Both the position numbers and the translations under genes were made by a program. Below are positions 1,209-22,101 of a stretch of DNA of 57,180 nucleotides, piece by piece. The notes beneath the pieces were generated by a model. It did not search any database and was not told the origin of the DNA. It saw nothing but the letters and a program-made list of their open reading frames with translations. Positions within the stretch are counted from its first letter, which is position 1, and every line of letters starts with the position of its first letter. This DNA is from Patescibacteria group bacterium (GTDB taxonomy: Bacteria; Patescibacteriota; Patescibacteriia; JBDRGY01): NCBI GenBank assembly GCA_043817315.1, contig JBDRGY010000003.1:1-57180 (forward strand), given 5' to 3'.

Positions 1209-1221
1209 AAGTAGCGATTGA

Positions 1222-7930: not shown

Positions 7931-8503
7931 TTATTCTAGATCCAGGGTTTGATGATCAATATTGAGATAGACCCAATTGACTTTATTGTTGGCATCCAGG
8001 CTGTAGGCAAAGACTTCTCTGGAGTCAGCTATTCCAATAGTTTTTCCGCCGAAATAATCTGCCATATTAGTCAGCATGGTGACCACGATTTGCTGAGTTT
8101 GGTCAAAGTTAAAGTTAGTAGTGACATTATCGATCCAAGTTAACTGAGTCTGAGCTGCTGTTTTATCGAGGTCACCACAACAACCACTGGCCTCCTTTTC
8201 CAGATGAACGGTATCAGCCAGATAGGTAGCAATGGTGTCGTGGTCATCAGCATTGACAGCGGCTTGAAAGGCAGAGCGCACTTGGCTTGAAGTCATGGTG
8301 GTTGTGGTGTTAACATTTTGGTTGGCTATATTTACGTTTTGGTTCGTTACATTGACATTCTGATTGGTAGTATTAGTGGTTTCTTCAGTTGGCTGCATCC
8401 ACCAATATACCGCGAATATAATTACCACAATAATAACCAATAAGATAAAGCCAGTTGATGATTTTTTTGGTTTTTGCTCTACTGATTTTGCTTGTTCGTC
8501 CAT
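7931..8503 (-). CDS. Membrane-anchored protein with an N/T-rich 7-aa tandem repeat linker
   Basis: MDEQ..EQKPKKSS, then a TM helix, then WW, then TNQNVNV x3, then a globular C-terminal domain. No family recognised. Confidence 0.6.
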   Translation of the reverse strand: MDEQAKSVEQKPKKSSTGFILLVIIVVIIFAVYWWMQPTEETTNTTNQNVNVTNQNVNIANQNVNTTTTMTSSQVRSAFQAAVNADDHDTIATYLADTVHLEKEASGCCGDLDKTAAQTQLTWIDNVTTNFNFDQTQQIVVTMLTNMADYFGGKTIGIADSREVFAYSLDANNKVNWVYLNIDHQTLDLE

Positions 8504-8600
8504 AAAAATTTAGTTTAATTATCCAAGTATTTAAATTAATTATCTACATTAAGTATACCAAGTAATCTCCAATATCTAAAACCTATGTGGATAACCTTTC

Positions 8601-8628
8601 TTGACAGGGGATATCAGGGTGCTAAAGT
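8601..8628 (+). promoter_or_regulatory. Promoter of the nrtR-like gene
   Basis: TTGACA-N16-TAAAGT. Confidence 0.45.
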
Positions 8629-8630
8629 GA

Positions 8631-8649
8631 TAGTGTAAAAGATACACTT
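8631..8649. promoter_or_regulatory. Candidate NrtR operator (imperfect palindrome)
   Basis: TAGTGTAaAAgATACACTt lies just after the -10 and matches the perfect palindrome at 9359 in 16/19 positions. It contains a GT-N7-AC core. Confidence 0.4.
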
Positions 8650-8659
8650 ATTAACAGCC

Positions 8660-9328
8660 ATGATTAAAAAGAGGTATAAACATGTAGTAATAGCCGTCGA
8701 TGTGGTAATTTTTACCATAATCGAAGAGCAGCTACATGTTTTGTTGATTAAGATGAAAAGAAAGCCTTATCTAAAAGCCTGGGCCGCTCCCGGAGGATTA
8801 GTCGATGTTAAAGATTCGGTGGAACAGGCTGCCCAAAAACATCTTCATCTAAAGGCCGGAGTTAAAGACATCTATTTGGAACAGCTTTACACTTTTGGGG
8901 AAGCCAGTCGGGATCCTTTCGGTCGGGTTGTTACGGTGGCTTATTTCGCCTTAATTCCCTCACGGAGCGTTAAACTAAAGACTACCAAAGAATACGGAGG
9001 AGTTAAGTGGTTCCCGGTTGGTAAATTACCTCAATTGGCCTATGACCACCGGCAGATTATTGAATATGCGGTGCACAGATTAAAGCTAAAATTGGAGCGT
9101 TCTAACGTGGTTTACGGCCTATTGCCCCGGGAATTTACCCTGGCCGAGCTGAAAGAGACCTACGAAATAATTTTGGGTAAAAAGATAGATAAAAGGAATT
9201 TCTATAAAAAGGTGAAAACTTTGAAGATTATCAGGGCAACCGGCCGTCTCAGAAGGGGAGAAGCCAACCGGCCGGCTATGCTTTATACTTTTATAACCCG
9301 CCAACCCAAACAGATCAGTGTCCTTTAA
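8660..9328 (+). CDS. nrtR: NrtR-like regulator (degenerate Nudix domain plus C-terminal winged helix)
   Basis: The Nudix box is degenerate: GGLVDVKDSVEQAAQKHLHLKAGV, with KHLHLK in place of REL.EE. The C-terminus, LLPREFTLAELKETYEIILGKKIDKRNFYKKV, is typical of NrtR wHTH domains. Confidence 0.7.
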   Translation: MIKKRYKHVVIAVDVVIFTIIEEQLHVLLIKMKRKPYLKAWAAPGGLVDVKDSVEQAAQKHLHLKAGVKDIYLEQLYTFGEASRDPFGRVVTVAYFALIPSRSVKLKTTKEYGGVKWFPVGKLPQLAYDHRQIIEYAVHRLKLKLERSNVVYGLLPREFTLAELKETYEIILGKKIDKRNFYKKVKTLKIIRATGRLRRGEANRPAMLYTFITRQPKQISVL

Positions 9329-9358
9329 ATATAAGTTATAAAAATTTTTCCCCTTAGT

Positions 9359-9377
9359 TAGTGTATAAAATACACTA
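9359..9377. promoter_or_regulatory. Candidate NrtR operator (perfect 19-bp palindrome)
   Basis: TAGTGTAT-AAA-ATACACTA, located between the nrtR stop codon and the first island promoter. Confidence 0.4.
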
Positions 9378-9435
9378 TACCGAGACCAGTGATTTGGCAC
9401 TTATCAATAATGGAAATTTGTGGGGTAAATGACCA

Positions 9436-9464
9436 TTGACAAATCTAAAGTTTTTAGCTAAGGT
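9436..9464 (+). promoter_or_regulatory. Promoter of the PP2C-kinase-PncA-vWA operon
   Basis: TTGACA-N17-TAAGGT. The -10 lies inside the palindrome at 9455-9470. Confidence 0.45.
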
Positions 9465-9509
9465 TAGCTATTCTCTGGCAAAAAGGCTAAGTTTAGCCTC
9501 ATTCCAGAG
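9455..9509 (+). promoter_or_regulatory. Island leader motif, copy 1 (two hairpins)
   Basis: TAGCTAA-gg-TTAGCTA, then ttc, then CTCTGG..AGGCTAA-gt-TTAGCCT..CCAGAG. Confidence 0.5.
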
Positions 9510-9580
9510 AGTTTGGATATTGGTTTGTACCTTGAAATCCCAGATTAGGCAAAAACACAGGAAAAACGGAGGGGGAAAAG

Positions 9581-10459
9581 ATGACAGAGCTGTTTGAGAT
9601 TGCTGCCGGCTCAGTGGCTGGCCGCGATCATGTCTTGGCCGGCCGTAATAACCAAGACGCCTATGTCTGGTCTATGTCTGACCAGGCAGTAATCGGCGTG
9701 GTTTGTGACGGCTGCTCCAAGGAGAGGCATAGCGAAGTAGGTAGTCAATTGACTGCTCAGCTTCTAGTGGAGACAATCAGACGCCACCATCTTCAGGGTC
9801 TGGCCAGAGGAAATCCCAATCTGCCGTTCATACATAGGGGTGCCTACTTTCCCTTTTGGGAAAAAGTGCGCCTGGATGTGTTAGCCCAGATCCGGGTTCT
9901 GGCCAATGCCATGGGAGAGAGTTTCAGTCGAACTGTCTGGAACTACTTCCTGTTTACTACGATGGGCTTCATAGTGACAGAACTGGGAGCGGCCTTCTTC
10001 TCCATTGGTGACGGAGTTTTCTTTATCAATGATGAGATGGTACGTCTCGGACCCTTTACCGACAACAAGCCGCCGTACCTGGCTTACGACCTGGTCGACT
10101 TGCCCGACGACAGTTTCGAGTCATCTGACTTGAGATTCCGTCTGGACATCTACCCGCCTGGTGCTGTCGATTCATTGTTGATTGGCACCGACGGGATTCT
10201 CGACTTGATCAAGAGTCAAGACCGAGTTATTCCCGGCAAGACAGAGTTGGTTGGCCCCATCAGTCAGTATTGGGAGAGTGATCGTTTCTTCCGCAACCCA
10301 GACAGCGTACGACGTCGCCTGGTTATCATCAACCGGGAGAGCGTACGAGTGGATCCACAGAAGAGAAGCTTGGTCAAGGAAGTGGGTCGTCTGGCTGATG
10401 ACACTACGCTAATCGTCCTGCGTCGCCAAGTCGAGGCAGAAGGGGTGGTAGAGCCATGA
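9581..10459 (+). CDS. PP2C-family protein phosphatase
   Basis: GR.NQDA, VCDGCS, IGDG, IGTDGI and C-terminal DDTTLIVL motifs. SD ggaggggg. Confidence 0.8.
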   Translation: MTELFEIAAGSVAGRDHVLAGRNNQDAYVWSMSDQAVIGVVCDGCSKERHSEVGSQLTAQLLVETIRRHHLQGLARGNPNLPFIHRGAYFPFWEKVRLDVLAQIRVLANAMGESFSRTVWNYFLFTTMGFIVTELGAAFFSIGDGVFFINDEMVRLGPFTDNKPPYLAYDLVDLPDDSFESSDLRFRLDIYPPGAVDSLLIGTDGILDLIKSQDRVIPGKTELVGPISQYWESDRFFRNPDSVRRRLVIINRESVRVDPQKRSLVKEVGRLADDTTLIVLRRQVEAEGVVEP

Positions 10460-12339
10460 AGTATGTCTATGTAAAAGATAGACGTGTTCGGCTCGACCCC
10501 ACTCGTTCGATCGGCAAAGGGGGAGAGGCGGATGTATTCGATGTCGGTGGCGGAGTGGCTCTTAAGCTATTTAAACCACCTAGCCATCCTGACTACCAGG
10601 GACAACCGCATGAGCAGCAAGCAGCTGAGGTACGTATCACCACCCATCAGCAAAAGCTGCCCGAACTGATGACCAGGGCAAATGTGTTACCCGGCAGGGT
10701 AATAACCCCCATTTCTTTGGCCACTAACCAGGCAGGCAGTCAGATTCTCGGCTATACCATGAAGTTTCTTGATGGCAACGAGATTCTGCTGCGCTTTACT
10801 GATCGTGGCTTCAGACAGACGGGAGTGGAAAACCAAGAGGTGGTCGACATCTTTTGCGATCTGCATCCCACCGTAACCGGAATTCATGGTGCCAGTTTCG
10901 TGATCGGTGACTTCAACGACCTCAACATCTTGGTCAGAGGAACTGAAGCTTGGTTGATCGATGCAGATAGCTTCCAGTTTGGGCCGTACAAGTGCACCAT
11001 GTTCACTCAGCGCTTTGTTGACCCCTTGCTCTGTGATCCCAAGAGATCCAGCCTGATGCTAGCCAGGCCCCATAATCAGGGTTCTGACTGGTATTCCTTC
11101 GCCGTGATGCTGATGCAGTGTCTGCTCTTCGTAGACCCCTACGGTGGAATCTATCGTCCCAAGCAAAAGGGCCAGAGGATTCCTCATGGAGCCAGACCTC
11201 TGCACCGCATCACTGTTTTCAATCCTGAGGTCAAGTATCCTAAACCAGCTATTCACTTTGGAGTGCTGCCGGATGAGCTTCTGCATCACTTCCATCTGGT
11301 GTTTGAAAAGGACCAGCGGGATCCATTTCCCCTGTCCTTGCTGCAAGGGATTCGCTGGACCACTTGTCCCAACTGTGGAGCGGAGCATGCCAGGACCCAG
11401 TGTCCCCAGTGTGCTGAAATGGCTCCGGGGATAGTCAAAGAGAGGATCCAAGTGAGGGGCCAAGTGACAGCTACCCGGATTTTCCAGACCGACGGCCAGA
11501 TCCTCTTTGCCGCCTATCAAGGCGGCAGGATGCGCTGGCTCTATCACCAGAACGGTCAGTATCGGCGTGAAGATCAATTAGTTGTCTTTTCCGGAGACTT
11601 GGATCGTAACGTCCGCTACCGTATCCACGGAGATCAAACTCTGTTGGGAAGCGGCAGCAATCTGGTTACCCTGCAAAGGGGGCAAGAACCAGACAAGATC
11701 AGTGTTGATACCTATCACAATCTACCAATCTTTGATGCCAATAGCCGAAGGCGTTACTGGTTGGATCAGGGTCGGTTGTACTGTGATGGTCAGTTCGGAC
11801 GCGATTACCTTGGTGATGTGCTGCGGGGACAGACTCTATTCTGGGTCGGTCCCAAGTTCGGATTCGGTTTCTACCGGGCCGGAACGCTCAACATTGCCTT
11901 TGTTTTCGACGCCGAACACCGGGGTATCAACGACTCGGTCAAGATTCCGGGTCTACGAGGTCAGCTGGTTGATTCGACCTGTTACTTCACCAAGGATCGA
12001 TGCTGGTTCTTGATATCGGTTCAGGAAGGCGGTAAGATATTTAACCGCTGCTACCTGATTCGGCCCGATGGCACTGTGGAAGCTTCAGCTGAAGCTGAAA
12101 GCGGAGATGATTCCTGGTTGGCCCGCTTGCGCGGCAAGTGTGCTGCCGGTCATTTCCTGATGGTAGCCACGGACGAAGGATTGGTTCGAGTGGAGAGGAG
12201 CGGCGATCAGCTGGTTGTCAGCAAAGAGTTTCCGGATACGGAACCGTTTGTCGATGCCGGTTGTCATCTCTTTCCCTGCAAGGAAGGTATCTACGCAGTG
12301 GATCAGCATGAAGTTCGTCTATTGAAGATCAGCAAGTAA
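10456..12339 (+). CDS. Protein kinase-like protein with an internal zinc ribbon and a large beta-rich C-terminal domain
   Basis: IGKGGEADVF...ALKLF (Gly loop and Lys), GDFNDLNIL (catalytic loop-like), LIDADSF (DFG-like), CPNCG..x8..CPQC. The start overlaps the PP2C stop (ATGA). Confidence 0.7.
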   Translation: MKYVYVKDRRVRLDPTRSIGKGGEADVFDVGGGVALKLFKPPSHPDYQGQPHEQQAAEVRITTHQQKLPELMTRANVLPGRVITPISLATNQAGSQILGYTMKFLDGNEILLRFTDRGFRQTGVENQEVVDIFCDLHPTVTGIHGASFVIGDFNDLNILVRGTEAWLIDADSFQFGPYKCTMFTQRFVDPLLCDPKRSSLMLARPHNQGSDWYSFAVMLMQCLLFVDPYGGIYRPKQKGQRIPHGARPLHRITVFNPEVKYPKPAIHFGVLPDELLHHFHLVFEKDQRDPFPLSLLQGIRWTTCPNCGAEHARTQCPQCAEMAPGIVKERIQVRGQVTATRIFQTDGQILFAAYQGGRMRWLYHQNGQYRREDQLVVFSGDLDRNVRYRIHGDQTLLGSGSNLVTLQRGQEPDKISVDTYHNLPIFDANSRRRYWLDQGRLYCDGQFGRDYLGDVLRGQTLFWVGPKFGFGFYRAGTLNIAFVFDAEHRGINDSVKIPGLRGQLVDSTCYFTKDRCWFLISVQEGGKIFNRCYLIRPDGTVEASAEAESGDDSWLARLRGKCAAGHFLMVATDEGLVRVERSGDQLVVSKEFPDTEPFVDAGCHLFPCKEGIYAVDQHEVRLLKISK

Positions 12340-12450
12340 CCATCACTCAACCAAGGAGGCTGGTATGTCAGTACGAGACGGCCCGCCCTAGCGGACCCAG
12401 ACATTGGTAGCAGTTCAGGATCAAGAACCTCTTACAGAAAGGAAGAGGAA

Positions 12451-13551
12451 ATGAGCAAGATTCAGACCATTCCGATGCCTTCTTTCTTCAGCGCTGCTAA
12501 TGCCGGAGAATGGGGCTACCGGCCCGATGTGGCCAGGCTGGCTGAGCTGGCCCCCAACTGGGCAGCTGAGCACGGTATCAAGGCTTCCGGCACGGATGAT
12601 TTCCGGCTGCATGTCCTGGGTATCGACCAGCAGCGGGATTTCTGCTTCCCCGAAGGAACTCTGTTCGTAGGGGGCAGGAGCGGCAGCGGAGCTATTGACG
12701 ACAGCGCTCGGTTTGCCGAGTACATCTACAGGAATTTGGGCATCATCACCCGGATTGATCTGACCTTCGACACCCACTTCGCCTTCCAGATCTTCTTCCC
12801 CTGGTTCTGGGTGGATACGGCTGGCAAGACTTTGCAAGCTCACACCCTGATCGTGGTCAGTGACGACGGTAAGTCACTTTCCAACATCGGTCTGGATGGC
12901 AGCCTGCTGCACGAGGATGTCAGGCCTAATCCGGCCATGACCTCCTGGCTGGCCAACGGCAACTACGGTTTCCTCTGCCAGTACGCCCTGCACTACTGTA
13001 AGCAGCTCAAGGAAGGCGGCAAGTACACGCTTTATCTCTGGCCGCCGCATTGTCTGCTGGGTGGCGAGGGACATGCCCTGGTCGGAGTGATCCACGAGGC
13101 GCATATGTTCCACGCCCTGGTCAGAGGATCTCAGAACAATGCCGAGGTTAAGGGAGGTAACCCCTTCACCGAGAACTACAGTGTCTTCCGGTCGGAGGTA
13201 CTGACTCGACAGGATGGCCAGGCAATCGCTCAGCGCAACACCCACTTCCTGAAGACGCTGACTGATGCTGATGCCGTGGTCATCGGAGGACAAGCCGCCA
13301 GCCACTGTGTCAAGAGCTCAATCGACGATCTGTTGGACGAGATCATGGCTCAGGACGCGGGATTGGCTCGCAAGGTCTATATCCTCAAGGACTGCATGTC
13401 CTCAGTGGCCATTCCTGACGGATCAGGCGGATTCGCCGTCGACTTCACGGACGAGACTGAAAAGGCGTTCGAGCGATTCACTGCTGCTGGCATGCATCTG
13501 GTGCTGTCGACCGATCCGATGGACACCTGGCCGGATCTCAATCTGGCCTGA
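12451..13551 (+). CDS. Nicotinamidase (PncA/isochorismatase family) with a ~100-aa insertion
   Basis: GIDQQRDFC, FDTH, WPPHCLLGGEGH, VKGGNPFTENYSVF and GGQAASHCV align to the PncA catalytic Asp/Lys/Cys and metal ligands. Confidence 0.7.
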   Translation: MSKIQTIPMPSFFSAANAGEWGYRPDVARLAELAPNWAAEHGIKASGTDDFRLHVLGIDQQRDFCFPEGTLFVGGRSGSGAIDDSARFAEYIYRNLGIITRIDLTFDTHFAFQIFFPWFWVDTAGKTLQAHTLIVVSDDGKSLSNIGLDGSLLHEDVRPNPAMTSWLANGNYGFLCQYALHYCKQLKEGGKYTLYLWPPHCLLGGEGHALVGVIHEAHMFHALVRGSQNNAEVKGGNPFTENYSVFRSEVLTRQDGQAIAQRNTHFLKTLTDADAVVIGGQAASHCVKSSIDDLLDEIMAQDAGLARKVYILKDCMSSVAIPDGSGGFAVDFTDETEKAFERFTAAGMHLVLSTDPMDTWPDLNLA

Positions 13552-13609
13552 TTTCTGGGGCAGTAAGTGGCAGTAGTCAATTTCTACATCAGAAACAGGA
13601 GGTAATCAG

Positions 13610-14431
13610 ATGAGTCAGGCCCCAGATGTTAAGGAACTGCTGAGTTCAGCCAAGGAAGAGGGAAGTATCTCCCAGTCGACCTTCGAGCTGCTCAGTGATG
13701 TCGATATCGGCGCCCGGATCCAGGCTGGACTGGGACTGACCGTGGATGATGTCCAGGCCAGTGAGGTCTTTCTGGTCACTCTGCTGATCGATGACTCAGG
13801 TTCCATCCGCTTTGCCGGCAATACGCAAGTGATGCGAGATGGCAACAACCTGATCATCGATTCCCTGATAGCCACTAAGCAGGTGGACAACATCCTGATG
13901 TCGACCCGCTACCTCAACGGCGACATCATCAGCCCCTTCGTCCTCATCGATCAGGCGGTGCGTCTTGACACCAGCAACTACGACCCCAACGGTGGTACTC
14001 CGCTTTACGACATGACTCTGGAGACCCTGGGCACAGTACTGGTCAAGTCCCAGGAGTTTGCTGATCAGGGCGTAATGGTGCGGTCGATCACGGTCATTGT
14101 CTCCGATGGCAATGACCAGCATTCACCGCGTCAGCACGGTGGTCGGGGAACTGCTCCGGCTGACTGTGCGGAGCTGGTCAAGAAGATGTTGCTGTCAGAA
14201 CAGCACATCGTGGCGGCCATGGGCATCGATGATGGCACAACGGACTTCAAGGATGTGTTCCGGTCAATGGGTATCCACGATGAGTGGGTTCTGACACCGG
14301 GCAACAACGAGAGTGAGATCCGCCACGCCTGGGGGTTCGTCTCCCAGTCAGCGGTTCGGGCTTCTCAGGGAGCAGCCAGCTTCTCGGAGACGGCTCTGGG
14401 CGGCTTCGGCGAGGAAGACGACGGCAGTTAG
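13610..14431 (+). CDS. vWA-domain protein (TerY-like)
   Basis: MIDAS motif LLIDDSGSI, GGTPLYD, VIVSDGNDQ. Confidence 0.75.
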   Translation: MSQAPDVKELLSSAKEEGSISQSTFELLSDVDIGARIQAGLGLTVDDVQASEVFLVTLLIDDSGSIRFAGNTQVMRDGNNLIIDSLIATKQVDNILMSTRYLNGDIISPFVLIDQAVRLDTSNYDPNGGTPLYDMTLETLGTVLVKSQEFADQGVMVRSITVIVSDGNDQHSPRQHGGRGTAPADCAELVKKMLLSEQHIVAAMGIDDGTTDFKDVFRSMGIHDEWVLTPGNNESEIRHAWGFVSQSAVRASQGAASFSETALGGFGEEDDGS

Positions 14432-14462
14432 CCTAATCAGGAGGGATTTGTACCTTTGGGAA

Positions 14463-14499
14463 GGGGGGTAGCCATCTTGGCTCCCCCCACCCCTTTTTA
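14463..14499 (+). terminator. Rho-independent terminator
   Basis: GGGGGGTAGCCA-tct-TGGCTCCCCCC followed by TTTTT. Confidence 0.7.
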
Positions 14500-14509
14500 C
14501 CTAAGACCC

Positions 14510-14538
14510 TTGACAAATCCTAGAAAATATGTTAAGTT
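14510..14538 (+). promoter_or_regulatory. Promoter of the NMNAT-NADK operon
   Basis: TTGACA-N17-TAAGTT. Confidence 0.55.
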
Positions 14539-14558
14539 TTGTTGTTTCTAAGAGAGGT

Positions 14559-14611
14559 TTAACTAAGTAATCTTGGTTAAATATCTCTGGCCTTAAACCG
14601 AGTTTGAGGCC
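14559..14611 (+). promoter_or_regulatory. Island leader motif, copy 2
   Basis: TTAACTAA-gtaatc-TTGGTTAA, then atatc, then TCTGG within GGCCTTAAA-ccgag-TTTGAGGCC. Lies downstream of the predicted -10, so it should be transcribed. Confidence 0.55.
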
Positions 14612-14677
14612 AAATAAACGGAGGAAACTTGGTATTCTTTGGATCGTCCTTTGAGATATTAATGAGAGGAGGCTGTA

Positions 14678-16060
14678 ATGGCCGAGCGAATTGCTCTCTT
14701 CGGAGGCAGTTTCAATCCGCCTGGGATGCACCATCGTTTGGTGGTGGAGCGGTTGCTACAGTCTTTTGAACGAGTGGTGATCATCCCCTGTGGTTTCCGT
14801 CCCGACAAGGAAACGACTAATGATGTGGAACCGATCCACCGTGCGGTAATGGCTGATCTGGCTTTCGGAGATTTACCGGGAGCAGAAGTAGTCCTTGATG
14901 ATCTGGAACAGGGAATCTTCACCAGAACCCATCAGTTGGATCAGATTTACCGGGAACAGGGTGAGGTTTGGCATGTGGTTGGTGGCGATCTGATCAAGGA
15001 AGGTAAAGATCGTCGGTCGGTGATCCAGAGGGAATGGCAGAAAGGACCGCAGGTTTGGCAAGACTGCAATTTTGCAGTTGTAGCCCGGCCCGGATACCGC
15101 TATTCCCAGGATGATCTGCCGCCACACAACCAGATGATGACCCCGATTGTTGAAGGCTCCAGTTCGGAGATTCGACAGAGAGCGTTCAACCACTTGCCTT
15201 ATGGGGATCTGGTGACTGCTAGGGTGGCCCAATACATCGAGCGCTACGCTCTGTACCGGGGTCGCCCCCCCTATCATTCAGCCCGTTTCAGTCTGGAGGA
15301 GCCTCGTCCTTTTGTCTTCTGCGATACGCAGAACTCACGAGCCTGTGAGTTGGCCAGAGGACTTGATAGCTTCCCCAGCCCCAACTGTATTCTGGTCCTG
15401 GGCGGCGATGGTACTATGCTGCGGGCTATCCGTGAGCACTGGCGCCTGAGGCTGCCCTTTATCGGCATTAACCTGGGGCACTACGGATTCAAGCTCAACG
15501 AAGATGATGGTTCTATCATCGACGGTGACCAGGTTAGGCTGCAAGACTTGGTGATAAGAAACTTGCCCTTGCTCTACGTGCAGACTTCTGATAATCAGGG
15601 ATCTGTAACAGATCATCTGGCTTTCAATGACGTCTGGATAGAGAGACAAGGAGGCCAGACTGCCTGGATCGAAGTTGCGGTTGACAAGGTGGTGCGTCTC
15701 CACAAGCTAGTCGGTGACGGCGTACTGATTGCAACAGCGGCTGGTTCCACTGCCTATGCTAGTGCTATGGGTGCCTCGGCCTTGCCGGTTGACGCTCCGG
15801 TTCTGATCATGGCGGGATCCAACGTTTTCTCGCCGGCCGGCTGGAAAGTGGCCAACTTACCACTTGAGGCTGATATCGAACTACGCGGTTTGGACACCGG
15901 CAAGCGGCCCCTGGATGGCTTTGTGGACGGAGAGCCTCTAGGTGAAGTTGTCCGCCTGTGCGCCAGGATAAGTCGGACTGCTTCAGCCGAAGTGGCTTTT
16001 GTGCCTACTTATGATATTGCTGAGAAGCTGACTCGAATCCAGTTTCCGGAGGGAGGGTAA
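14678..16060 (+). CDS. Fusion of NMN/NaMN adenylyltransferase (NMNAT-like) and NAD kinase
   Basis: N-terminus: FGGSFNPPGMHHR, HRAVMADLA, SSSEIR. C-terminus: ILVLGGDGTMLRAI, NDVWIER, GDGVLIATAAGSTAYASAMGA (NadK motifs). Confidence 0.8.
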   Translation: MAERIALFGGSFNPPGMHHRLVVERLLQSFERVVIIPCGFRPDKETTNDVEPIHRAVMADLAFGDLPGAEVVLDDLEQGIFTRTHQLDQIYREQGEVWHVVGGDLIKEGKDRRSVIQREWQKGPQVWQDCNFAVVARPGYRYSQDDLPPHNQMMTPIVEGSSSEIRQRAFNHLPYGDLVTARVAQYIERYALYRGRPPYHSARFSLEEPRPFVFCDTQNSRACELARGLDSFPSPNCILVLGGDGTMLRAIREHWRLRLPFIGINLGHYGFKLNEDDGSIIDGDQVRLQDLVIRNLPLLYVQTSDNQGSVTDHLAFNDVWIERQGGQTAWIEVAVDKVVRLHKLVGDGVLIATAAGSTAYASAMGASALPVDAPVLIMAGSNVFSPAGWKVANLPLEADIELRGLDTGKRPLDGFVDGEPLGEVVRLCARISRTASAEVAFVPTYDIAEKLTRIQFPEGG

Positions 16061-16062
16061 CC

Positions 16063-16365
16063 ATGTCCAAGTCAGAACTGGCGGTGAAGTTGACCATTAA
16101 GCGGGAAGGTGACAACGTCTTTGTCATCGGTCTGCTTGGTCATCAGGGTGCTCTACAGATTGTGCCCAGCCTGCGTGACGAGGATTTGATCATCGAGCCG
16201 GGTGGACGGGCCCACCTGGAGTTCCGTACCATTACTCAGAAGCCGATGGTTCAGATCTGCCGCAGCGACGGTGAGGTAATACTGACCCGGGACCTGGATC
16301 GCGATGAGATTCTGATCACCTTCGATCCCTGGGATCATATCGCCTCGGTCCCCGTCTCCTGGTAA
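16063..16365 (+). CDS. Hypothetical 100-aa protein, tightly coupled to the fusion gene
   Basis: ATG 2 nt after the upstream stop, island-like G+C, no family recognised. Confidence 0.5.
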   Translation: MSKSELAVKLTIKREGDNVFVIGLLGHQGALQIVPSLRDEDLIIEPGGRAHLEFRTITQKPMVQICRSDGEVILTRDLDRDEILITFDPWDHIASVPVSW

Positions 16366-16379
16366 GAAGCTCTTCTCTT

Positions 16380-16426
16380 GTCTGGCAGTAGACCCTAGCG
16401 GGTTGCTGCCAGACAGATTATTTTTT
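16380..16426 (+). terminator. Rho-independent terminator
   Basis: GTCTGGCAG...CTGCCAGAC followed by TTATTTTTT. Confidence 0.7.
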
Positions 16427-16485
16427 CAGAAAAGGGTAACTAAATACTTGGTTATCGCTTTCTGGTCTCAAAGCGATTTGAGACT
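16425..16485 (+). promoter_or_regulatory. Island leader motif, copy 3
   Basis: TAACTAA-atac-TTGGTTA (16437-16454), then tcgctt, then TCTGG within GGTCTCAAA-gcga-TTTGAGACT (16464-16485). 56/61 identical to copy 4. Confidence 0.55.
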
Positions 16486-16537
16486 ATCGATCATTACAAT
16501 TGACAAGGATAAACCCCCAAGAACAGGGAGGAATAAA

Positions 16538-17326
16538 ATGGAGCAGAGATCTTCTGTTACCGTTCCTTCCTTGTTCATTCAGACAAGGGGGGAAGATTCG
16601 TTTAAGGTAGCACTGCAGCTGACCACAGCTGCCAGCCGGTTTGTAGTTAGACTAACCGGTGGTTGTGGTTACATGAGAGAAGCTGACGCTAGGGGGATGT
16701 ACGATCTGTTCAGGGGTGCCTTTGCTGGTTACCTGGGAGCTTTGCTCTTTGGGGGAACCAGAATGGTACGTAAAGACGATCACTCTGTGGTGGTGCCTGG
16801 GATTACAGAAGTAGCACCGCTAATCGGTCAACATTGCCCTGGTTCTATGGTTATGGGTGTCATTCCTCGCACTCAGGATCTCAAGGTTTCTGAAGCGGGG
16901 TTGATTGTCCACCAAGAACCAGACAACGACTTCCTGACCGTTATTCATCCAGACCAGCAGGTCTGTGTGGTGGTCCAGAAATCAGCTGACCAGGAAGTTC
17001 CCTGGGAGGCTGAATACCTGGAGTGCCTGCGGATTATGCATAATCTAAGGGAGCATGCCAAGTTTGCTTCTCTGCTTATCAGCTACAACGGCGGTTCAGT
17101 AACCGAGAAGGAAATCCTAGCAACCGCCAAACTAGGTTGGCCGGTTCTGCTGATCAACGGCAGCGGTCGAATCTCTGACCAGTATGCCAATGATCAAGAC
17201 TTCCTGGAGCAATACCCCAACGTAGCAGTGGCTTGGAGGGACGTTGCTTCGTTCCGAGAACAACTGGTTCGTTTGGGCGCTCTGCATGGCGTTAACCCTG
17301 AGTTATCCCAGGTTGAAAGGGGGTAG
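16538..17326 (+). CDS. SLOG-superfamily protein, TRPM-type (LSDAT-like), paralog 1
   Basis: Start moved from 16403 to the ATG behind SD gggagg, because the track extension covers the leader motif. Motifs: LTGGCG, LFGGTR, SYNGGSVTEKEI, WPVLLINGSGRISDQYA (compare TRPM GSGR.AD). Confidence 0.65.
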   Translation: MEQRSSVTVPSLFIQTRGEDSFKVALQLTTAASRFVVRLTGGCGYMREADARGMYDLFRGAFAGYLGALLFGGTRMVRKDDHSVVVPGITEVAPLIGQHCPGSMVMGVIPRTQDLKVSEAGLIVHQEPDNDFLTVIHPDQQVCVVVQKSADQEVPWEAEYLECLRIMHNLREHAKFASLLISYNGGSVTEKEILATAKLGWPVLLINGSGRISDQYANDQDFLEQYPNVAVAWRDVASFREQLVRLGALHGVNPELSQVERG

Positions 17327-17386
17327 GAAGGCGTATCACCTCTAGGCACTATAGGCCAAGGGAAGGGCTACAGAAAGGGAGGTTGT

Positions 17387-18166
17387 GTGAAAGGACCATA
17401 CGCGGTAACGGCACCAGGTGGCAAGCTCAACCTGATGGTGATGGATGCATCGGACGGTGTTCCTGCCGCTTTTGCCCTGATGGGCACCCTGGCCGAGCGC
17501 AAGGTAGCGCTGCGTCTAGGAGGCGGCTGCAAGGGTATGGACACCAACGACAAGGCAGCAATGCTGGCCTACTTCCGGGATGCCCTACGGGGCTTCAACG
17601 GCTTGATCTGGTCTGGCGGCACTCGTCAGGTCGATGGGAACGACCAGGTGAACCCCATGGTCACCGACGTGCCCGGCGTGATTGCCGCTGAGAACCCCGG
17701 CGCTGTGGCTCTGGGTACAGTACCCCGGGTCGAGATGCTGACCCTACAACAGGATTCCCGACTGGTTCTGGACCAGTGGGGCACCGTGCCCAATCCGACT
17801 ATGTCCGGTATCCTGGTGGTACAGAACGGCCCGGACGGTGAGTTGGACTGGGACGGCGATGTAGATACCTACATCGCCATGATGGAGAGCTGGCGTACCT
17901 ACGCTAACTTCACGGCCCTGGGCTTGGTCGCCTGGAACGGCGGAGCGGTCACCGAGCAGGAGATTATCAAGGCCGCCAGCAAGGGCTGGCCCGTGATCCT
18001 GATCAAGGGATCGGGTAGGGTGACCGACGAGATCGCCACCAAGCTGGCGGCGGACGATCCGGCGCTGATCGCCAAGCTACCGCAGGAGTTCAAGATCATC
18101 GTGGCCGACATCGCCGATCCCAACACGCTGCGAGTGGCCCTGACCGAGCACGGCTTCCTGGGATAG
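17387..18166 (+). CDS. SLOG-superfamily protein, TRPM-type (LSDAT-like), paralog 2
   Basis: GTG start behind gggagg. Motifs: LGGGCKG, WSGGTR, AWNGGAVTEQEI, WPVILIKGSGRVTDEIA. Collinear with paralog 1. Confidence 0.65.
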   Translation: MKGPYAVTAPGGKLNLMVMDASDGVPAAFALMGTLAERKVALRLGGGCKGMDTNDKAAMLAYFRDALRGFNGLIWSGGTRQVDGNDQVNPMVTDVPGVIAAENPGAVALGTVPRVEMLTLQQDSRLVLDQWGTVPNPTMSGILVVQNGPDGELDWDGDVDTYIAMMESWRTYANFTALGLVAWNGGAVTEQEIIKAASKGWPVILIKGSGRVTDEIATKLAADDPALIAKLPQEFKIIVADIADPNTLRVALTEHGFLG

Positions 18167-18180
18167 ACATTCTTGTCGAC

Positions 18181-18216
18181 AGGAGGAGGGGTGAGCATGG
18201 CTCATCCCTCCTACCT
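18181..18216 (+). terminator. Rho-independent terminator (weak T-tract)
   Basis: GGAGGGGTGAGC-atg-GCTCATCCCTCC followed by TACCTATTTATT. Confidence 0.5.
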
Positions 18217-18221
18217 ATTTA

Positions 18222-18282
18222 TTCAGAAAATGGTAACTAAATATTTAGTTATCGCTTTCTGGTCTCAAAGAGATTTGAGGCT
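18222..18282 (+). promoter_or_regulatory. Island leader motif, copy 4
   Basis: Perfect 18-nt palindrome TAACTAAATATTTAGTTA (18234-18251), then tcgctt, then TCTGG within GGTCTCAAA-gaga-TTTGAGGCT (18261-18282). Confidence 0.55.
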
Positions 18283-18346
18283 TGCGTACCTTACAATGTA
18301 GCTAAGTAGGAAAACACCTATGGCGACTAGCCAGGAGGTTAGTGTT

Positions 18347-19591
18347 ATGTTTGAGCCGATCATCCGCACCCTGATGGATATTGATTTCTACAAGTTCACT
18401 ATGGGACATCTGATTTTCCTGATTCCCAGCTACCGTCGTTTGCGCGTCAAATTCGCCTTCAGGAACCGCACCCCTGGCGTGGCTCTGGCCGATATTATGT
18501 CAGAAGAGGCTTTGCGTTGGCAGCTAGATCAGGCGATGACTCTGCGCTTCAACAACTCAGACTTGCATTACCTGCGGGGAACCAACGAGTACGGTCGTCG
18601 TATGTTCGACGAACAGTATTTGGAGTTCCTGCGGGGATACAGCCTGCCTTCTTATCACCTGGAGCGATCTGGCGACACCTATGTCCTGGAGTTCGAAGGC
18701 CCCTGGGCTGAGGTGACCTACTGGGAAACCATTGCCCTGGCTATCATCAACGAGCTGTACACTCAGGCAATGATCAGCGGCTTCAGCTCCTTCGATCAGG
18801 ATGTGGTCATGGCCGAAGGCCGGATGAGGCTGGCAGACAAGATCTCCAGACTGCGAGCGGCACCTTTCGACCTGACTCTCTCTGATTTCGGGACGCGACG
18901 TCGTTGGAGCCGGTTCTGGCAAGAATATGTAGTCAGGACTCTGGCCGAAGAACTGCCCCGTCATCTGCTGGGTACTTCTAACACCTGGCTGGCCATGAAG
19001 CTCGGCTTGCTGCCGATGGGCACCTCGGCTCATGAGCTGCCCATGGCTGTATCCGGACTGTTTCATGACAGCGACGAAGGGATTCTTCATTCCCAGATGC
19101 AGGTGCTGGATGACTGGTGGGAGCTTTACGGCGAAGGCCTGTCCATTGCCTTGCCTGATACCTATGGTACGGAATCGTTTTTCCGAGCCATGGGAGAGAA
19201 AAGGGCTAGGGACTGGAAGGGTACCCGCCAGGATTCAGGCGATCCCTTCGAGATTGGAGAGATGACCATTGCCTTCTACGAGGGCCTGGGCATCGATCCC
19301 AAGGACAAGCTGCTGGTGTTCAGCGACGGACTGGATGTGGATACCATACTGGCTCTGTTCGAGCGGTTCCAGGGCCGGATTCGTCCCACCTTTGGTTGGG
19401 GCACTAACCTGACCAACGATCTGGGCATTAAGCCGCTTTCTCTGGTGATCAAGGTGGTGGAGAGTAATGGCCACGGTACGGTCAAGCTGTCTGACAACCT
19501 GGCCAAGGCCATTGGAACGTCGGATGATGTGGAGCGTTTCAAGCACATCTTCGGCTACACCAAGAACACCTACACCCCAGTTACCTACTAG
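18347..19591 (+). CDS. pncB: Nicotinate phosphoribosyltransferase
   Basis: Collinear with E. coli-type PncB: DFYKFTM, DFGTRRR, GTSN, MGTSAHE, RQDSGDP, VFSDGLD, GWGTNLT, KLSDN. Start placed at the ATG 8 nt after AGGAGG; the track start at 18320 adds 9 aa. Confidence 0.9.
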   Translation: MFEPIIRTLMDIDFYKFTMGHLIFLIPSYRRLRVKFAFRNRTPGVALADIMSEEALRWQLDQAMTLRFNNSDLHYLRGTNEYGRRMFDEQYLEFLRGYSLPSYHLERSGDTYVLEFEGPWAEVTYWETIALAIINELYTQAMISGFSSFDQDVVMAEGRMRLADKISRLRAAPFDLTLSDFGTRRRWSRFWQEYVVRTLAEELPRHLLGTSNTWLAMKLGLLPMGTSAHELPMAVSGLFHDSDEGILHSQMQVLDDWWELYGEGLSIALPDTYGTESFFRAMGEKRARDWKGTRQDSGDPFEIGEMTIAFYEGLGIDPKDKLLVFSDGLDVDTILALFERFQGRIRPTFGWGTNLTNDLGIKPLSLVIKVVESNGHGTVKLSDNLAKAIGTSDDVERFKHIFGYTKNTYTPVTY

Positions 19592-19600
19592 GCTACAACT

Positions 19601-19647
19601 GGTGGGAGAGAAACCTCGCGTTTCCCTCCCACCACAATATTTTCTTC
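19601..19647 (+). terminator. Rho-independent terminator
   Basis: GGTGGGAGAGAAAC-ctcgc-GTTTCCCTCCCACC followed by a T-rich tract. Confidence 0.6.
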
Positions 19648-19753
19648 TGACTATACCCCCTTACTTATTAAGAGGTTGCAGTGAGGAGGAAAGTAGATCA
19701 TTCACAAACGGATTCTCAGTTCAGCTGAGAATCAAAGGAAAGGAGCCAATCTG

Positions 19754-20692
19754 ATGGCTTGGTTGACTATGGACGAAATTCCCAGCTTCCTGCGGATTGA
19801 TGCGAAAAAGGAAGTCGAGATCATCGTACAGAGGATGACAGAGTTCCGAGACCGAGAACTTCTCATGACTGGCAAAGAGAAAATGGCCATTGTCTTGGGG
19901 CTTTCCGGGGGCCTGGACTCTGCCGTCGTTTGTCGTCTCTGGACGGAAGTGGTTGGCCCGGAGAACGTCTATCCGGTGATCATGCCCGGTCCTACTTCCA
20001 ATAGTGACAGCGACGATCTGGCCCGGCTACTGGCCATTAGACTGCAGACACCACAAGCAAATCGGGTCAAACTGCCGATTTCTGAGGCTGATATTACTCA
20101 CGCCCTGGGTGCGGATCTGGATTCCGAGGGTCCGGGCGGCCTGACGCGTCGCGGTAATGTGATGGCCCGGTTGAGGATGCTACGACTGAGAGATCGAGTG
20201 TCTCAGCTGGCCGAGGAGCATCCAGAAGTGATGTTCCGACTGGCCGGAACCGAGAACGCTTCGGAGCACTGGATGGCTTTCTTCACCATCTCTGGCGACC
20301 AGTCATCAGATATTGAGATACTGACCGGTTACCTGAAGACACAGGTCTGGCAGTTGGGTAAGCACTTCTGCCTTTCTCCAGAGATCCTGGATCGGGATCC
20401 TTCGCCGGAGCTGGGAGACTGCCAGACGGATGAAGAGGCCCTGCCCTCGGTTTACTGGCAGGTTGATTCGGTACTTTTCCACTTGCTGCGGATGGGAGAC
20501 GATCCGGCGGATGTACGCCGCATGCTCCGGGAAGAGAAGCTCAGGGATCTGCTGGAGCTGGTGCATTCACCTCTCCACACCTTTATCCAGTACGACACCG
20601 CTGAGCGGATCCTGCAGTGGATCATCGACCACCTGGGCAAGCTGGAGATTCCCTATGAGTTAACCGGGGATCGGTTGTACCACCAGAGTTAG
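19754..20692 (+). CDS. nadE: NH3-dependent NAD+ synthetase
   Basis: PP-loop GLSGGLDS, GNVMARLRM, GTENASE....FFT..GD...D...L.GL.K, DPSPEL. Confidence 0.75.
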   Translation: MAWLTMDEIPSFLRIDAKKEVEIIVQRMTEFRDRELLMTGKEKMAIVLGLSGGLDSAVVCRLWTEVVGPENVYPVIMPGPTSNSDSDDLARLLAIRLQTPQANRVKLPISEADITHALGADLDSEGPGGLTRRGNVMARLRMLRLRDRVSQLAEEHPEVMFRLAGTENASEHWMAFFTISGDQSSDIEILTGYLKTQVWQLGKHFCLSPEILDRDPSPELGDCQTDEEALPSVYWQVDSVLFHLLRMGDDPADVRRMLREEKLRDLLELVHSPLHTFIQYDTAERILQWIIDHLGKLEIPYELTGDRLYHQS

Positions 20693-20701
20693 GAGGTCAA
20701 G

Positions 20702-21136
20702 ATGGCACTTGATGCCAGTACTCATGTGGTCAGGCTTCTCCGCTGCTCTTTCTGCGGCAGCTATCATGGTAGTACCAAGGAAGCGGAAAGACACGGTTGC
20801 CTGGCCGGTGAACTTCCGAAGGACTTCACGGTCGGCGATCGGGTGATCGCCGACTTCACCGTCGGTGAGGGAATGTCTGCAGTTGGCCACCAGAAGGTTG
20901 TCGGAGTGATCAAGGAGATTGCCCCGCCGCACAGTGAGGAACTGAAGCCTGAGCTGACTGTACAGCGACCTCCCTGGGCACCTCCTGGTATCGGTATCCA
21001 GCCCTTTCCCATCCAGGCTCCCCTTAAGCTTCATGAGTGGGTGGCCCTGGTTGAGCCGACTGAGCAACCAGAAGAACCACGCTACATTCGGGAGGAGAGG
21101 TTTTTCTTTTCTGATCTGATACCCGCTGAGGGTTAG
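20702..21136 (+). CDS. Hypothetical protein (144 aa)
   Basis: SD aggagg, island-like G+C, N-terminal CSFCG...H..C possible metal site, no family recognised. Confidence 0.5.
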   Translation: MALDASTHVVRLLRCSFCGSYHGSTKEAERHGCLAGELPKDFTVGDRVIADFTVGEGMSAVGHQKVVGVIKEIAPPHSEELKPELTVQRPPWAPPGIGIQPFPIQAPLKLHEWVALVEPTEQPEEPRYIREERFFFSDLIPAEG

Positions 21137-21150
21137 AAGATCGTATTACA

Positions 21151-21180
21151 AGGAGCGCAAAGCAACGCGCTCCTTTTTCT
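21151..21180 (+). terminator. Rho-independent terminator
   Basis: AGGAGCGC-aaagcaac-GCGCTCCT followed by TTTTCTTTT. Confidence 0.75.
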
Positions 21181-21185
21181 TTTCC

Positions 21186-21214
21186 TTGACGGATAATTAT
21201 CATATTGATAAGGT
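21186..21214 (+). promoter_or_regulatory. Promoter with an embedded 10-bp palindrome
   Basis: TTGACG-N17-TAAGGT. The GATAATTATC palindrome sits directly after the -35. Confidence 0.5.
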
Positions 21215-21297
21215 AATAAACTGTCCTTTTAACCAGGGGCGCTGAGAGGCAGCCCCCGCTCTGGAGACGGAGCGAGTCCTTCGAGAGGAGGAGGCAG

Positions 21298-22101
21298 ATG
21301 GCAAGAACGTGTGACCTGGCACTGGCCCAGTGGCATCTTTTCGGTCGTAAGGTCGATAAACTGAGCCTCAGGGTCCATACCCTGTTGTCGCGAGTAGGAC
21401 AGCCAGGTGGACCCAAAACCGTTGAGGATATCTACGACGACGTTATCCAAGCCTGTTTTACAATCAGGCCTGATGGAACCCCGCTGGAAAGCGTGGAGCG
21501 AATTGCCACCATCTTTGTGGCAGTAGCTGAGGCCAATTCCGATTTGGCTCACCACTGGCTGAGGAAGGTGGATTCCTCTATCGCGGAAGGAGTACCCGAA
21601 GGCAAGATCAATTCCAACTACGTCTTCGGCATGCTCTTGGGTATCTTCCGGGCGGCGGCCCAAATCGACAGCAGCCGTTGTGATCTGCCGGAATTCAAGA
21701 AACAGATGCCCCATGTAGTTCTCAGTATGATTAAGGAGTGGAAGCACGGGGTACCTAGAGACGACAGATGGACCCTACGTGAATTCGGCCGCAAGTATCC
21801 TGGGCTACTTTCAGAATCGATCAAGAAGTGGGTAGGCATGGCCTGGAACAGAATGAACACCCTGAGAGTTTATCGCCAGACTGACTTGCATTTGATCATG
21901 CTGGAGCTGGACAGGTGGTTGTCCCAACGACCACATCCCAAGCTTTCTGCGTTTACCTCTCTGATTGTCAACGAGCTGACTGGAGCTCAGTTTGTGAGAG
22001 GGGATGCCCGTAATAGGGCCCTCATCTTAGCTCACTGGGAACAGAAGCAGGATGACGAAGTGAGAGCCAGAGGGGAAGTTGAGAAAGGCGAAGATTCATA
22101 G
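21298..22101 (+). CDS. Hypothetical helical protein (267 aa)
   Basis: SD gaggagg, island-like G+C, no family recognised. Confidence 0.5.
   Translation: MARTCDLALAQWHLFGRKVDKLSLRVHTLLSRVGQPGGPKTVEDIYDDVIQACFTIRPDGTPLESVERIATIFVAVAEANSDLAHHWLRKVDSSIAEGVPEGKINSNYVFGMLLGIFRAAAQIDSSRCDLPEFKKQMPHVVLSMIKEWKHGVPRDDRWTLREFGRKYPGLLSESIKKWVGMAWNRMNTLRVYRQTDLHLIMLELDRWLSQRPHPKLSAFTSLIVNELTGAQFVRGDARNRALILAHWEQKQDDEVRARGEVEKGEDS

Follow-up and report, generated by a model that had tools for sequence, protein, structure and literature searches.

Why do similar AT-rich palindromic leaders stand ahead of unrelated genes within one bacterial gene island, and do they work as RNA or as DNA? The question is raised by a 57,180-nt stretch of a genome of the Patescibacteria group (JBDRGY010000003.1, positions 1-57,180; the window in what follows), for which a first-pass annotation had described four copies of a two-hairpin motif, here W1 to W4 (copies 1 to 4), ahead of the transcription units of an island of nicotinamide adenine dinucleotide (NAD) salvage and ADP-ribose genes. 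The reading that we somewhat favor as a whole is that copies 2 to 4 belong to a conserved structured RNA family, absent from Rfam, which in NAD-salvage and ADP-ribose islands of Patescibacteria probably serves as a cis-acting element of mRNA leaders and intercistronic regions. Copy 1, judged by its sequence, is a look-alike.

A degenerate form of the hairpin 1 pattern (TA[AG]CTAA-N0-8-TT[AG]G[CT]TA) matched the window at exactly four places, 9455-9470, 14560-14579, 16437-16454 and 18234-18251, and the exact hairpin 1 pattern was not matched in any of 100 shuffled sequences. The four annotated sites stand as occurrences of the pattern, and the genes said to follow them (the PP2C operon, the NMNAT-NADK fusion, a pair of SLOG genes and pncB, respectively) were confirmed by Pfam; membership of the family extends only to copies 2 to 4. 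Recomputation also bore out the T:G wobbles of hairpin 1, its loops of 2, 4, 4 and 6 nt, the U-A, U-G and C-G series in hairpin 2, and the location of two copies directly after terminators (16380-16426 before copy 3 and 18184-18223 before copy 4). The stretches 16425-16485 and 18222-18282 are identical at 56 of 61 positions, as had been reported, and are contained in an 82-nt direct repeat of 87% identity (16419-16500 and 18216-18297). Each of the three copies consists of a first hairpin (H1) closed by an outer helix (P1), a second hairpin (H2) and a short third element. Their predicted parts, with the two adjoining terminators, are the following.

14551-14588, + strand: H1 of copy 2, with P1 AGAGA/UCUCU, a 1×1 mismatch, an 11-bp upper stem and the loop UAAU.
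14589-14611, + strand: H2 of copy 2, GGCCUUAAAC/GUUUGAGGCC, with a 0-nt linker after H1.
14631-14645, + strand: third element of copy 2, GGTATTCTTTGGATC, in the alignment the poorest fit to the consensus.
16380-16426, + strand: intrinsic terminator of the NMNAT-NADK/100-aa unit, GUCUGGCAG...CUGCCAGAC and then a U tract, adjoining copy 3.
16427-16464, + strand: H1 of copy 3, CAGAAA/UUUCUG, with a 2×2 internal loop and the upper stem GGUAACUAA/UUGGUUAUC.
16465-16485, + strand: H2 of copy 3, GUCUCAAA/UUUGAGAC(U).
16487-16500, + strand: third element of copy 3, TCGATCATTACAAT.
18184-18223, + strand: intrinsic terminator of the SLOG pair, with a 13-bp stem (8 GC pairs) and a T-rich tail, adjoining copy 4.
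18224-18261, + strand: H1 of copy 4, CAGAAA/UUUCUG, with a 1×1 A.C mismatch and a 10-bp upper stem.
18262-18282, + strand: H2 of copy 4, GUCUCAAA/UUUGAGGC(U).
18284-18297, + strand: third element of copy 4, GCGTACCTTACAAT.

Copy 2 has a minimum free energy (MFE) of -39.6 kcal/mol (z = -5.2) and scores 71.9 bits (E 3e-15) against the covariance model (CM) of the family, R1; the corresponding z-scores and CM scores are -4.3 and 63.3 bits for copy 3 and -4.1 and 62.9 bits for copy 4. A repeat search found a 19-nt-arm inverted repeat, CAGAAAATGGTAACTAAAT/ATTTAGTTATCGCTTTCTG (I11), at H1 of copy 4. Copy 3 is identical in the strain-level contigs L022 and L023, and over the 140 nt of 18134-18273, which take in the terminator and most of copy 4, L022 differs from the window only at 18270 and 18271, both in the loop of H2; the second SLOG gene, which adjoins this terminator and copy, is about 20% diverged between the two. 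This divergence, seen over 17206-18133 against <0.5% elsewhere, marks a sharp recombination or diversification hot spot that ends just before the terminator and copy 4.

The first of three corrections to the original description concerns the sequence TCTGG, taken to be an element between the hairpins. It is not a linker, since hairpin 1 lies inside an outer helix that had been overlooked (AGAAA/UUUCU or AGAGA/UCUCU): the 3′ strand of this helix, P1, and the first base or bases of H2 together make up TCTGG, and the hairpin 1 of the first-pass annotation is the variable top stem of H1.

Copy 1 departs further from the other three.

9455-9509, + strand: copy 1, a partial look-alike with the dyad TAGCTAAGGTTAGCTA; in its MFE fold CUCUGG (9473-9478) pairs with CCAGAG (9504-9509) around the hairpin GGCUAAGUUUAGCC (9485-9498).

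It does not have the 5′ strand of P1 and scored below 5 bits against CM R1 even with filters off. Its dyad, TAGC-TAAGGT-TAGCTA, encloses the -10 of a conserved promoter type described below; if this promoter is real, hairpin 1 of copy 1 would be untranscribed. On this sequence evidence copy 1 is not a family member, and the window appears to hold three genuine copies plus a partial look-alike. The A:T to G:C arm change that had been offered as pairing-preserving is present in the sequence, but it must be discounted because it is drawn from copy 1; better compensations were found in other genomes. Two possible short forms without hairpin 1, in the pncA leader (about 16360-16400) and the PP2C leader (about 10800-10860) of L031, scored at most 9 bits and were set aside as unsupported.

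Among related loci (labelled L001 to L037), homologues of the element are present in three syntenic, nrtR-linked Patescibacteria islands, L019, L026 and L031 (L031-L033). In total 12 copies were found in four genomes, three in the window, four in L019, two in L026 and three in L031, all of them ahead of NAD or ADP-ribose genes, which in the relatives also include pncA, an ADP-ribosylglycohydrolase gene and a Nudix gene. Every copy lies on the strand of its downstream gene, and the order is always H1, H2, third element, gene. When the copies were folded singly, one common MFE architecture was obtained for 11 of the 12, with z-scores of -3.7 to -5.2 in seven copies and -1.2 to -2.7 in the remainder. 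H1 is a hairpin of 34-38 nt, made up of the 5-bp P1 (AGARA/UYUCU), a 1×1 mismatch, 3-4 bp, a second mismatch and a variable top of 5-7 bp. H2 is a hairpin of 9-10 bp which begins with GGYC and frequently has one central mismatch. The linker between them is 0-1 nt in all 12 copies, and since nothing separates the hairpins, P1 and H2 can stack on the continuous strand CUYUCU-GGYC. The positions conserved in at least 90% of copies fall in P1 and the H2 stem, on this strand at the helix junction; loops and mismatches vary, the upper-stem loop being 4-6 nt long and H2 of L026 containing as many as 37 inserted nt.

The third element has the consensus r-y-G-W-W-C-W-T-T-n-A-A-A and lies 8-15 nt past H2 and 33-55 nt upstream of start codons, the distance from H2 to the start codon being about 40-65 nt. 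Similar sequences also occur in island leaders that do not have the hairpins, namely at 9525-9538 and 19693-19709 of the window, in L029, in L016 and in the PP2C leader of L031.

19693-19709, + strand: third-element-like sequence of the nadE leader, GTAGATCATTCACAAAC, after the terminator at 19600-19646 and with the two hairpins absent.

A sigma-70 promoter was rejected as an explanation of the third element, the -10-like hexamers showing no A2/T6 conservation and no -35 being present at 16-18 nt; extracytoplasmic function sigma factor (ECF), sigma-54, Bacteroidetes-type and NadR-box readings were judged by eye and dropped.

Covariation among the copies was assessed on an alignment made from sequence only with MAFFT, with pairs counted on a 26-pair structure. 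Twenty of the 26 pairs are altered on both sides. Cells are paired in 87.5% of cases, compared with 70.1±1.7% after shuffling (0 of 500 shuffles reached the observed value) and 33-49% when the 3′ partner was slid by ±1-3 columns, and the covariation score is 0.513 as against 0.223 shuffled and 0.09-0.16 slid. Pair counts repeated on a CM-derived alignment agreed, and RNAalifold returned the same two-hairpin structure from the sequence-only alignment, with 17 of 23 pairs compensated. The top stems illustrate the extent of the change: UGUAACG/CGUUUCA, AAUGAU/AUCAUU and CCGAAA/UUUCGG in L031 and CACCAC/GUGGUG and GUGGA/UCCAC in L026, with pairing kept, and AACUAA/UUAGUU or UUGGUU in the window. 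P1 covaries as well, occurring as AGAAA/UUUCU, AGAGA/UCUCU and AAAGC/GCUUU. Even within one genome the top stems of the copies differ in sequence yet still pair, which a DNA-binding dimer that reads sequence cannot explain and a hairpin can. The homologues, the variable stem sequences, the pair counts and the RNAalifold result all uphold the earlier preference for a base-paired RNA structure over a dimer operator of fixed spacing.

The RNA would be that of the + strand. G.U cells number 29 and A.C cells 15 (27 and 10 without one misaligned row), and the + strand has the better MFE in 8 of the 12 copies, including all three in the window. The constant polarity from H1 through H2 and the third element to the gene, seen in 12 of 12 copies, is a stronger argument for this strand than the folding asymmetry.

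The family is also restricted in its distribution. In 468 kb (the window of 57 kb and related loci totalling about 410 kb), CM R1 matched the 12 copies and the duplicates of them in strain-level contigs, at 42-72 bits, and nothing else; the non-Patescibacteria NrtR loci L001-L014 gave no match. A genome-contig search with NrtR yielded only relatives of at most 51% identity from other phyla, none of which has the motif by CM, and viral-contig searches with NMNAT-NADK and NrtR gave no matches. A metagenome scan for TAACTAA-N2-6-TTRGTTA-N3-8-TCTGGNCTNAAA produced one match (L015), which lies inside an open reading frame (ORF), has no hairpin 2 and was judged to be due to chance. When window positions 8500-19800 and L019 positions 9700-18800 were scanned with cmscan against Rfam 15, no family matched the motif at the gathering threshold or at E≤10, which accords with the earlier remark that it does not resemble the nadA or pnuC motifs. 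Full-text literature searches found no paper linking Patescibacteria or the Candidate Phyla Radiation to an NAD-related RNA motif.

The relation of the motif to the operators of the repressor NrtR was considered separately. An NrtR site is a palindrome of 21 bp around a GT-N7-AC core; it overlaps a promoter or lies between promoter and start codon, and tandem sites occur (PMC2330246). The first-pass annotation had named an NrtR operator as the DNA alternative and had overlooked two canonical boxes nearby.

8601-8606 and 8623-8628: predicted nrtR promoter, TTGACA and TAAAGT.
8631-8649, no strand assigned: predicted NrtR box 1, TAGTGTAAAAGATACACTT, a palindrome with the GT-N7-AC core just 3′ of the -10 of the nrtR promoter.
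8660-9328, + strand: nrtR, a Nudix plus NrtR winged-helix repressor (Pfam NrtR_WHD 1.6e-21, NUDIX 4.6e-12).
9359-9377, no strand assigned: predicted NrtR box 2, TAGTGTATAAAATACACTA, a perfect palindrome 30 nt past the nrtR stop codon.

With up to two mismatches, TAGTGTA-N5-TACACTA matches the window only at these two sites (0.10 expected). Near-identical boxes flank nrtR in the homologue contigs L016, L019, L021, L026, L029, L031, L034 and L036; equivalents of box 1 overlap the nrtR promoters of L019, L026, L031, L029, L034 and L036, and an equivalent of box 2 lies downstream of nrtR in L016, L019, L021, L026, L029, L031 and L036. The GT-N7-AC core is absent from W1 to W4, and in L016 and L019 it is an NrtR box and not the two-hairpin motif that stands ahead of pnuC. 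Because the canonical boxes are separate sites flanking nrtR, the two-hairpin motif is distinct from the predicted operators, and an NrtR-operator reading of it is excluded for practical purposes. In L036 (10697-11041) three tandem NrtR boxes were noted between nrtR and the PP2C operon, each after one of a set of similar T-rich repeats about 100 nt long.

How the copies might be transcribed was considered next to the promoters and terminators around them. A promoter-like arrangement with an unusual -10, TTGACA-N16/17-TAAGKT, recurs at two sites in the window and at about 12398 in L019, 16326 in L031 and 13420 in L029; a generic promoter scan did not pick it up.

9436-9464, + strand: promoter-like site ahead of the PP2C operon, TTGACA-17-TAAGGT, proposed from sequence, with its -10 inside hairpin 1 of copy 1.
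14510-14538, + strand: promoter-like site ahead of copy 2, TTGACA-17-TAAGTT, after a terminator at 14459-14498.

Full copies follow such sites in W2 and L019 A1 (TTGACA-17-TAAGTT) and in L026 B1 (TTGACG-17-TACTGT), so that these three would sit in 5′ untranslated regions (UTRs). Each internal terminator of the window island (16380, 18184 and 19600) has a copy ahead of it within its unit (W2, W3 and W4, respectively). H2 is not itself an intrinsic terminator; the sequence after it is A-rich and not U-rich, and the true terminators are separate upstream hairpins. The CU-rich 3′ strand of P1 can pair with Shine-Dalgarno (SD) regions, at -13.3 kcal/mol in W4, -9.4 in L019 A2 and -8.5 in W3.

We propose that in + strand mRNA each copy would fold into H1 and H2 with P1 and H2 stacked, and that the element would act in cis where each unit of transcription or translation begins, the units being those of NMNAT-NADK, the SLOG pair and pncB. 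It would work beside NrtR, whose predicted DNA boxes lie only around nrtR. The stacked junction would be recognized by a trans-acting macromolecule, either an RNA-binding protein or the transcribing RNA polymerase, and recognition would set read-through of the internal terminators, in a manner like that of the put and EAR antiterminators, or access to the downstream ribosome-binding site, an option that arises from the CU-rich, anti-SD-like strand sequestered in P1. We favor a protein or RNA polymerase as the recognizing partner over a small-molecule pocket, since the conserved bases sit in helices at the H1/H2 junction and unpaired positions vary.

Several results weigh against this proposal. 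Nine of the 12 copies adjoin a terminator-like hairpin of the preceding gene and have no recognizable promoter before the start codon, so that their presence in RNA would depend on read-through. The anti-SD duplexes show no instance-specific signal (mean -6.92 kcal/mol with a copy's own SD, -6.79 with the SDs of other copies), and an anti-SD switch, while possible, is unsupported by these energies. The island yielded no candidate for an RNA-binding protein, its unknown ORFs having given uninformative results with PADLOC and with relaxed Pfam scans. Strand asymmetry is moderate, with three of the 12 copies folding better on the minus strand; two positions, H1 position 6 and H2 position 5, show recurrent A.C mismatches; and the location of conserved bases in helices would be expected of a DNA-level signal too. 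CM R1 had no match in the Patescibacteria islands L029 and L036, both of which are without the NMNAT-NADK fusion, or in the non-Patescibacteria NMNAT-NADK loci L027 and L037. Finally, the copies are paralogs from only four genomes, which makes for an effective sample of fewer than 12. Beside the SD question, we noted that the pncB leader of L036 (15736-15836), which does not have the two-hairpin motif, contains a CU-rich strand, CUCUCUCAA, complementary to the SD region, UUGAGAGAGGAG, which suggests an SD-sequestering hairpin.

Among the alternatives to a protein- or polymerase-recognized RNA, the one that survives best is a metabolite riboswitch, as the first-pass annotation had suggested; we do not favor it and consider it unlikely. 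It would be a third NAD-pathway class, sensing NAD+, nicotinic acid adenine dinucleotide, nicotinamide mononucleotide, ADP-ribose, nicotinamide or a related compound and controlling translation or termination of the salvage gene. A conserved, covarying structure is what any riboswitch would show, and the exclusive link to NAD-salvage and ADP-ribose genes in four genomes, the several copies per island, reminiscent of regulon-wide riboswitch use, and the fact that NrtR boxes cover nrtR and the neighboring operon only, so that the remaining units have no known regulator, all speak for it, as does the layout of the known NAD+-I riboswitch, which also consists of two tandem bulged stem-loops (PMC7297122). 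However, there are no conserved unpaired nucleotides from which a pocket could be built, mismatch identities and loops being variable. No expression platform was recognized either: neither a terminator nor an SD-sequestering helix is tied to the fold, the sequence after H2 being A-rich and SD pairing not instance-specific. None of the Rfam riboswitch models matches.

A second alternative, which we regard as quite improbable, is a DNA-level or selfish palindrome that travels with the island, whether like repetitive extragenic palindromic (REP) sequences or miniature inverted-repeat transposable elements (MITEs), like attC sites, or as a cruciform or promoter-architecture element. Such an element would fit an island of 53-56% GC between flanks of about 41%, the 82-nt repeat formed by copies 3 and 4 and the position of copies at module boundaries after terminators, and its imperfect hairpins with fixed mismatch positions recall attC and REP sequences. 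In 4 of the 12 copies the minus strand folds at least as well as the plus strand, and the third element resembles a weak -10 in some (TACAAT in W3 and W4). Nevertheless, no -35 lies 16-18 nt from the third element, every copy is oriented like the gene that follows it, and start codons lie at a roughly constant distance. No copies occur outside islands in the roughly 470 kb searched, the window ORFs scanned include no neighboring integrase or transposase, and copies in one island are strongly diverged yet keep the fold, which argues for long-term selection and not recent spread. Two specific candidates were rejected: an integron attC site, because no integrase was found among those ORFs and no RYYYAAC/GTTRRRY cores lie at the hairpin bases, and a REP/MITE-like dispersed repeat, because CM copies lie only inside NAD islands in the DNA searched.

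Less probable still is a passive RNA processing or stability element, in which an endonuclease would cut either in the stretch between the upstream terminator hairpin and H1 or at the third element. The new ends would be protected by the hairpins, and the relative stability of the mRNA segments of the island would be set in this way without any sensing. The layout would suit it, a GC hairpin being followed by an AU-rich single strand, H1 and H2, and then a site like that of RNase E; the third element resembles the RN|WUU cleavage motif reported for this enzyme. Conservation lies in helices and not in loops, and the hairpins upstream of the L019 copies have no U tract and so look like the intercistronic hairpins of one long operon. 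Restriction to NAD islands, on the other hand, would be unexpected of a generic RNase signal, and the promoter-proximal copies W2, L019 A1 and L026 B1 would need no processing.

Very improbable is the idea that the palindromes are DNA operators of NrtR or another dimeric transcription factor repressing island promoters: although nrtR lies directly upstream of copy 1, tandem NrtR sites are known (PMC2330246), the dyad-to-dyad distance is a constant 29-30.5 bp in the four window copies and the dyad of copy 1 overlaps a -10, the real NrtR boxes differ in sequence, lie elsewhere and are kept beside nrtR in at least seven related loci, and the motif has no GT-N7-AC core, conserves pairing but not half-site sequence, varies in arm spacing (loops of 4-6 nt; the L026 inserts in H2) and is inconsistently placed relative to promoter-like sites.

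The genes around the copies were identified by Pfam as follows.

9581-14431: PP2C operon of four genes, with copy 1 ahead of it.
14678-16060: NMNAT-NADK fusion, with copy 2 ahead.
16538-17326 and 17387-18166: two SLOG (LSDAT_prok) genes, with copy 3 ahead.
18320-19591: pncB, with copy 4 ahead.
19754-20692: nadE, with a leader that does not have the two hairpins.

The products of the PP2C operon are a PP2C phosphatase, two proteins with weak matches only (kinase-like in one of 627 aa, nicotinamidase-like in one of 366 aa) and a 273-aa protein of unknown kind; the operon had no PADLOC matches. Its place beside nrtR is kept in the window, L026, L031 and L036, and in L016 a PP2C-like N-terminus follows nadR at the truncated end of the contig. 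Gene order is nrtR-pnuC-nadR-265aa-pncA-ADP-ribosylglycohydrolase-NMNAT/NADK-pncB-nadE in L019, nrtR-PP2C operon-NMNAT/NADK-Nudix-like-pncB-nadE in L026 and nrtR-PP2C operon-pncA-297aa-NMNAT/NADK-Nudix-pncB in L031-L033. The window NrtR scores 150 bits against the NCBIfam model of the ADP-ribose-responsive repressor, below its cut-off of 400, and an exact-protein look-up returned no record of it; its closest homologues, at 58-70% identity, are labelled only as Patescibacteria or Parcubacteria where the source gives a name. Apart from an identical strain copy, the best matches of the NMNAT-NADK fusion (52-54% identity) include Verrucomicrobiota, Planctomycetes and Acidobacteria in addition to Patescibacteria. 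The island looks horizontally acquired beside a resident nrtR, because the cluster at about 9,600-22,000 is 53-56% GC, the surrounding chromosome about 41% and nrtR itself 43%; the flanking chromosome also codes for polynucleotide phosphorylase (PNPase), YifB and tRNAs. Elsewhere in the window (126-5814) there are two large DUF11-repeat (B_ant_repeat) surface-type proteins, one of them of 1391 aa, and in L019 a pair at 1047-2723 that resembles a diversity-generating retroelement (bAvd and reverse-transcriptase fragments) precedes the NAD island by some 7 kb.

The genomes of Patescibacteria are reduced, their gene regulation is little characterized, and they are widely considered to rely on metabolites that they scavenge. 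The salvage genes of the island are pncB, the NMNAT-NADK fusion and nadE, with pncA in relatives. On this NAD-salvage and ADP-ribose island, which looks horizontally mobile, two regulatory layers are predicted, NrtR with boxes around its own gene and a structured RNA heading the remaining units. We suggest only tentatively, and with considerable doubt, that the RNA is a new NAD-pathway regulatory class native to the Candidate Phyla Radiation, a second layer beside NrtR that would be either the third riboswitch class responsive to NAD or ADP-ribose or a factor-independent, put-like antiterminator that would carry RNA polymerase past the internal terminators. If it is true that the RNA senses an NAD-related metabolite, it would constitute a new riboswitch class and could serve, too, as a native regulatory part for organisms without genetic tools; an antiterminator or a protein-binding site would instead point to an unknown regulator of NAD homeostasis. 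CM R1 is ready for use in searches of Patescibacteria genomes and metagenomes.

Among known systems, the NrtR operator is likewise palindromic, intergenic and part of an nrtR-linked NAD cluster, but it is a 21-bp site with conserved sequence and a GT-N7-AC core, while the island motif has no such core and varies in sequence with its pairing kept (PMC2330246). The NAD+-I riboswitch of nadA in Acidobacteria is a cis-element of two consecutive stem-loops broken by internal loops and associated with NAD-pathway genes (PMC7297122, PMC6859854). To this extent the island element, two consecutive interrupted stem-loops upstream of NAD-pathway genes, is similar; however, the two domains of the nadA motif resemble each other and contain a conserved ACANCCCC bulge, whereas the island hairpins are dissimilar and ACANCCCC is absent. 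Island mismatches are 1×1 and not conserved in identity, the genes are those of salvage and ADP-ribose and not nadA, and the phylum is another. NAD+-II, the pnuC riboswitch, is a pseudoknotted three-helix fold overlapping the ribosome-binding site of pnuC (PMC10085692, PMC7749635). The island element shares its tie to NAD salvage but shows no evidence of a pseudoknot, has no Rfam match, lies 40-65 nt from start codons and does not precede pnuC. Intercistronic processing and stability signals, such as the RNase III sites of the T7 early region and REP hairpins, are long imperfect hairpins between co-oriented cistrons beside terminators. The island element is also made of long imperfect hairpins with internal mismatches between co-oriented cistrons near terminators; unlike such signals, it is limited to one island type, has a conserved junction and a fixed layout of two hairpins and a third element, and occurs in predicted 5′ UTRs after promoters as well. 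The put sites of phage HK022 and the EAR element of Bacillus consist of two stem-loops, separated by at most 1 nt, that the transcript contains ahead of the terminators they suppress, and their function depends on helices rather than loops. Compared by description only, the island element is like them in its two adjacent stem-loops, in its linker of 0-1 nt and in that W2, W3 and W4 each precede the next terminator; unlike put, its copies recur after each terminator and are tied to one metabolic regulon.

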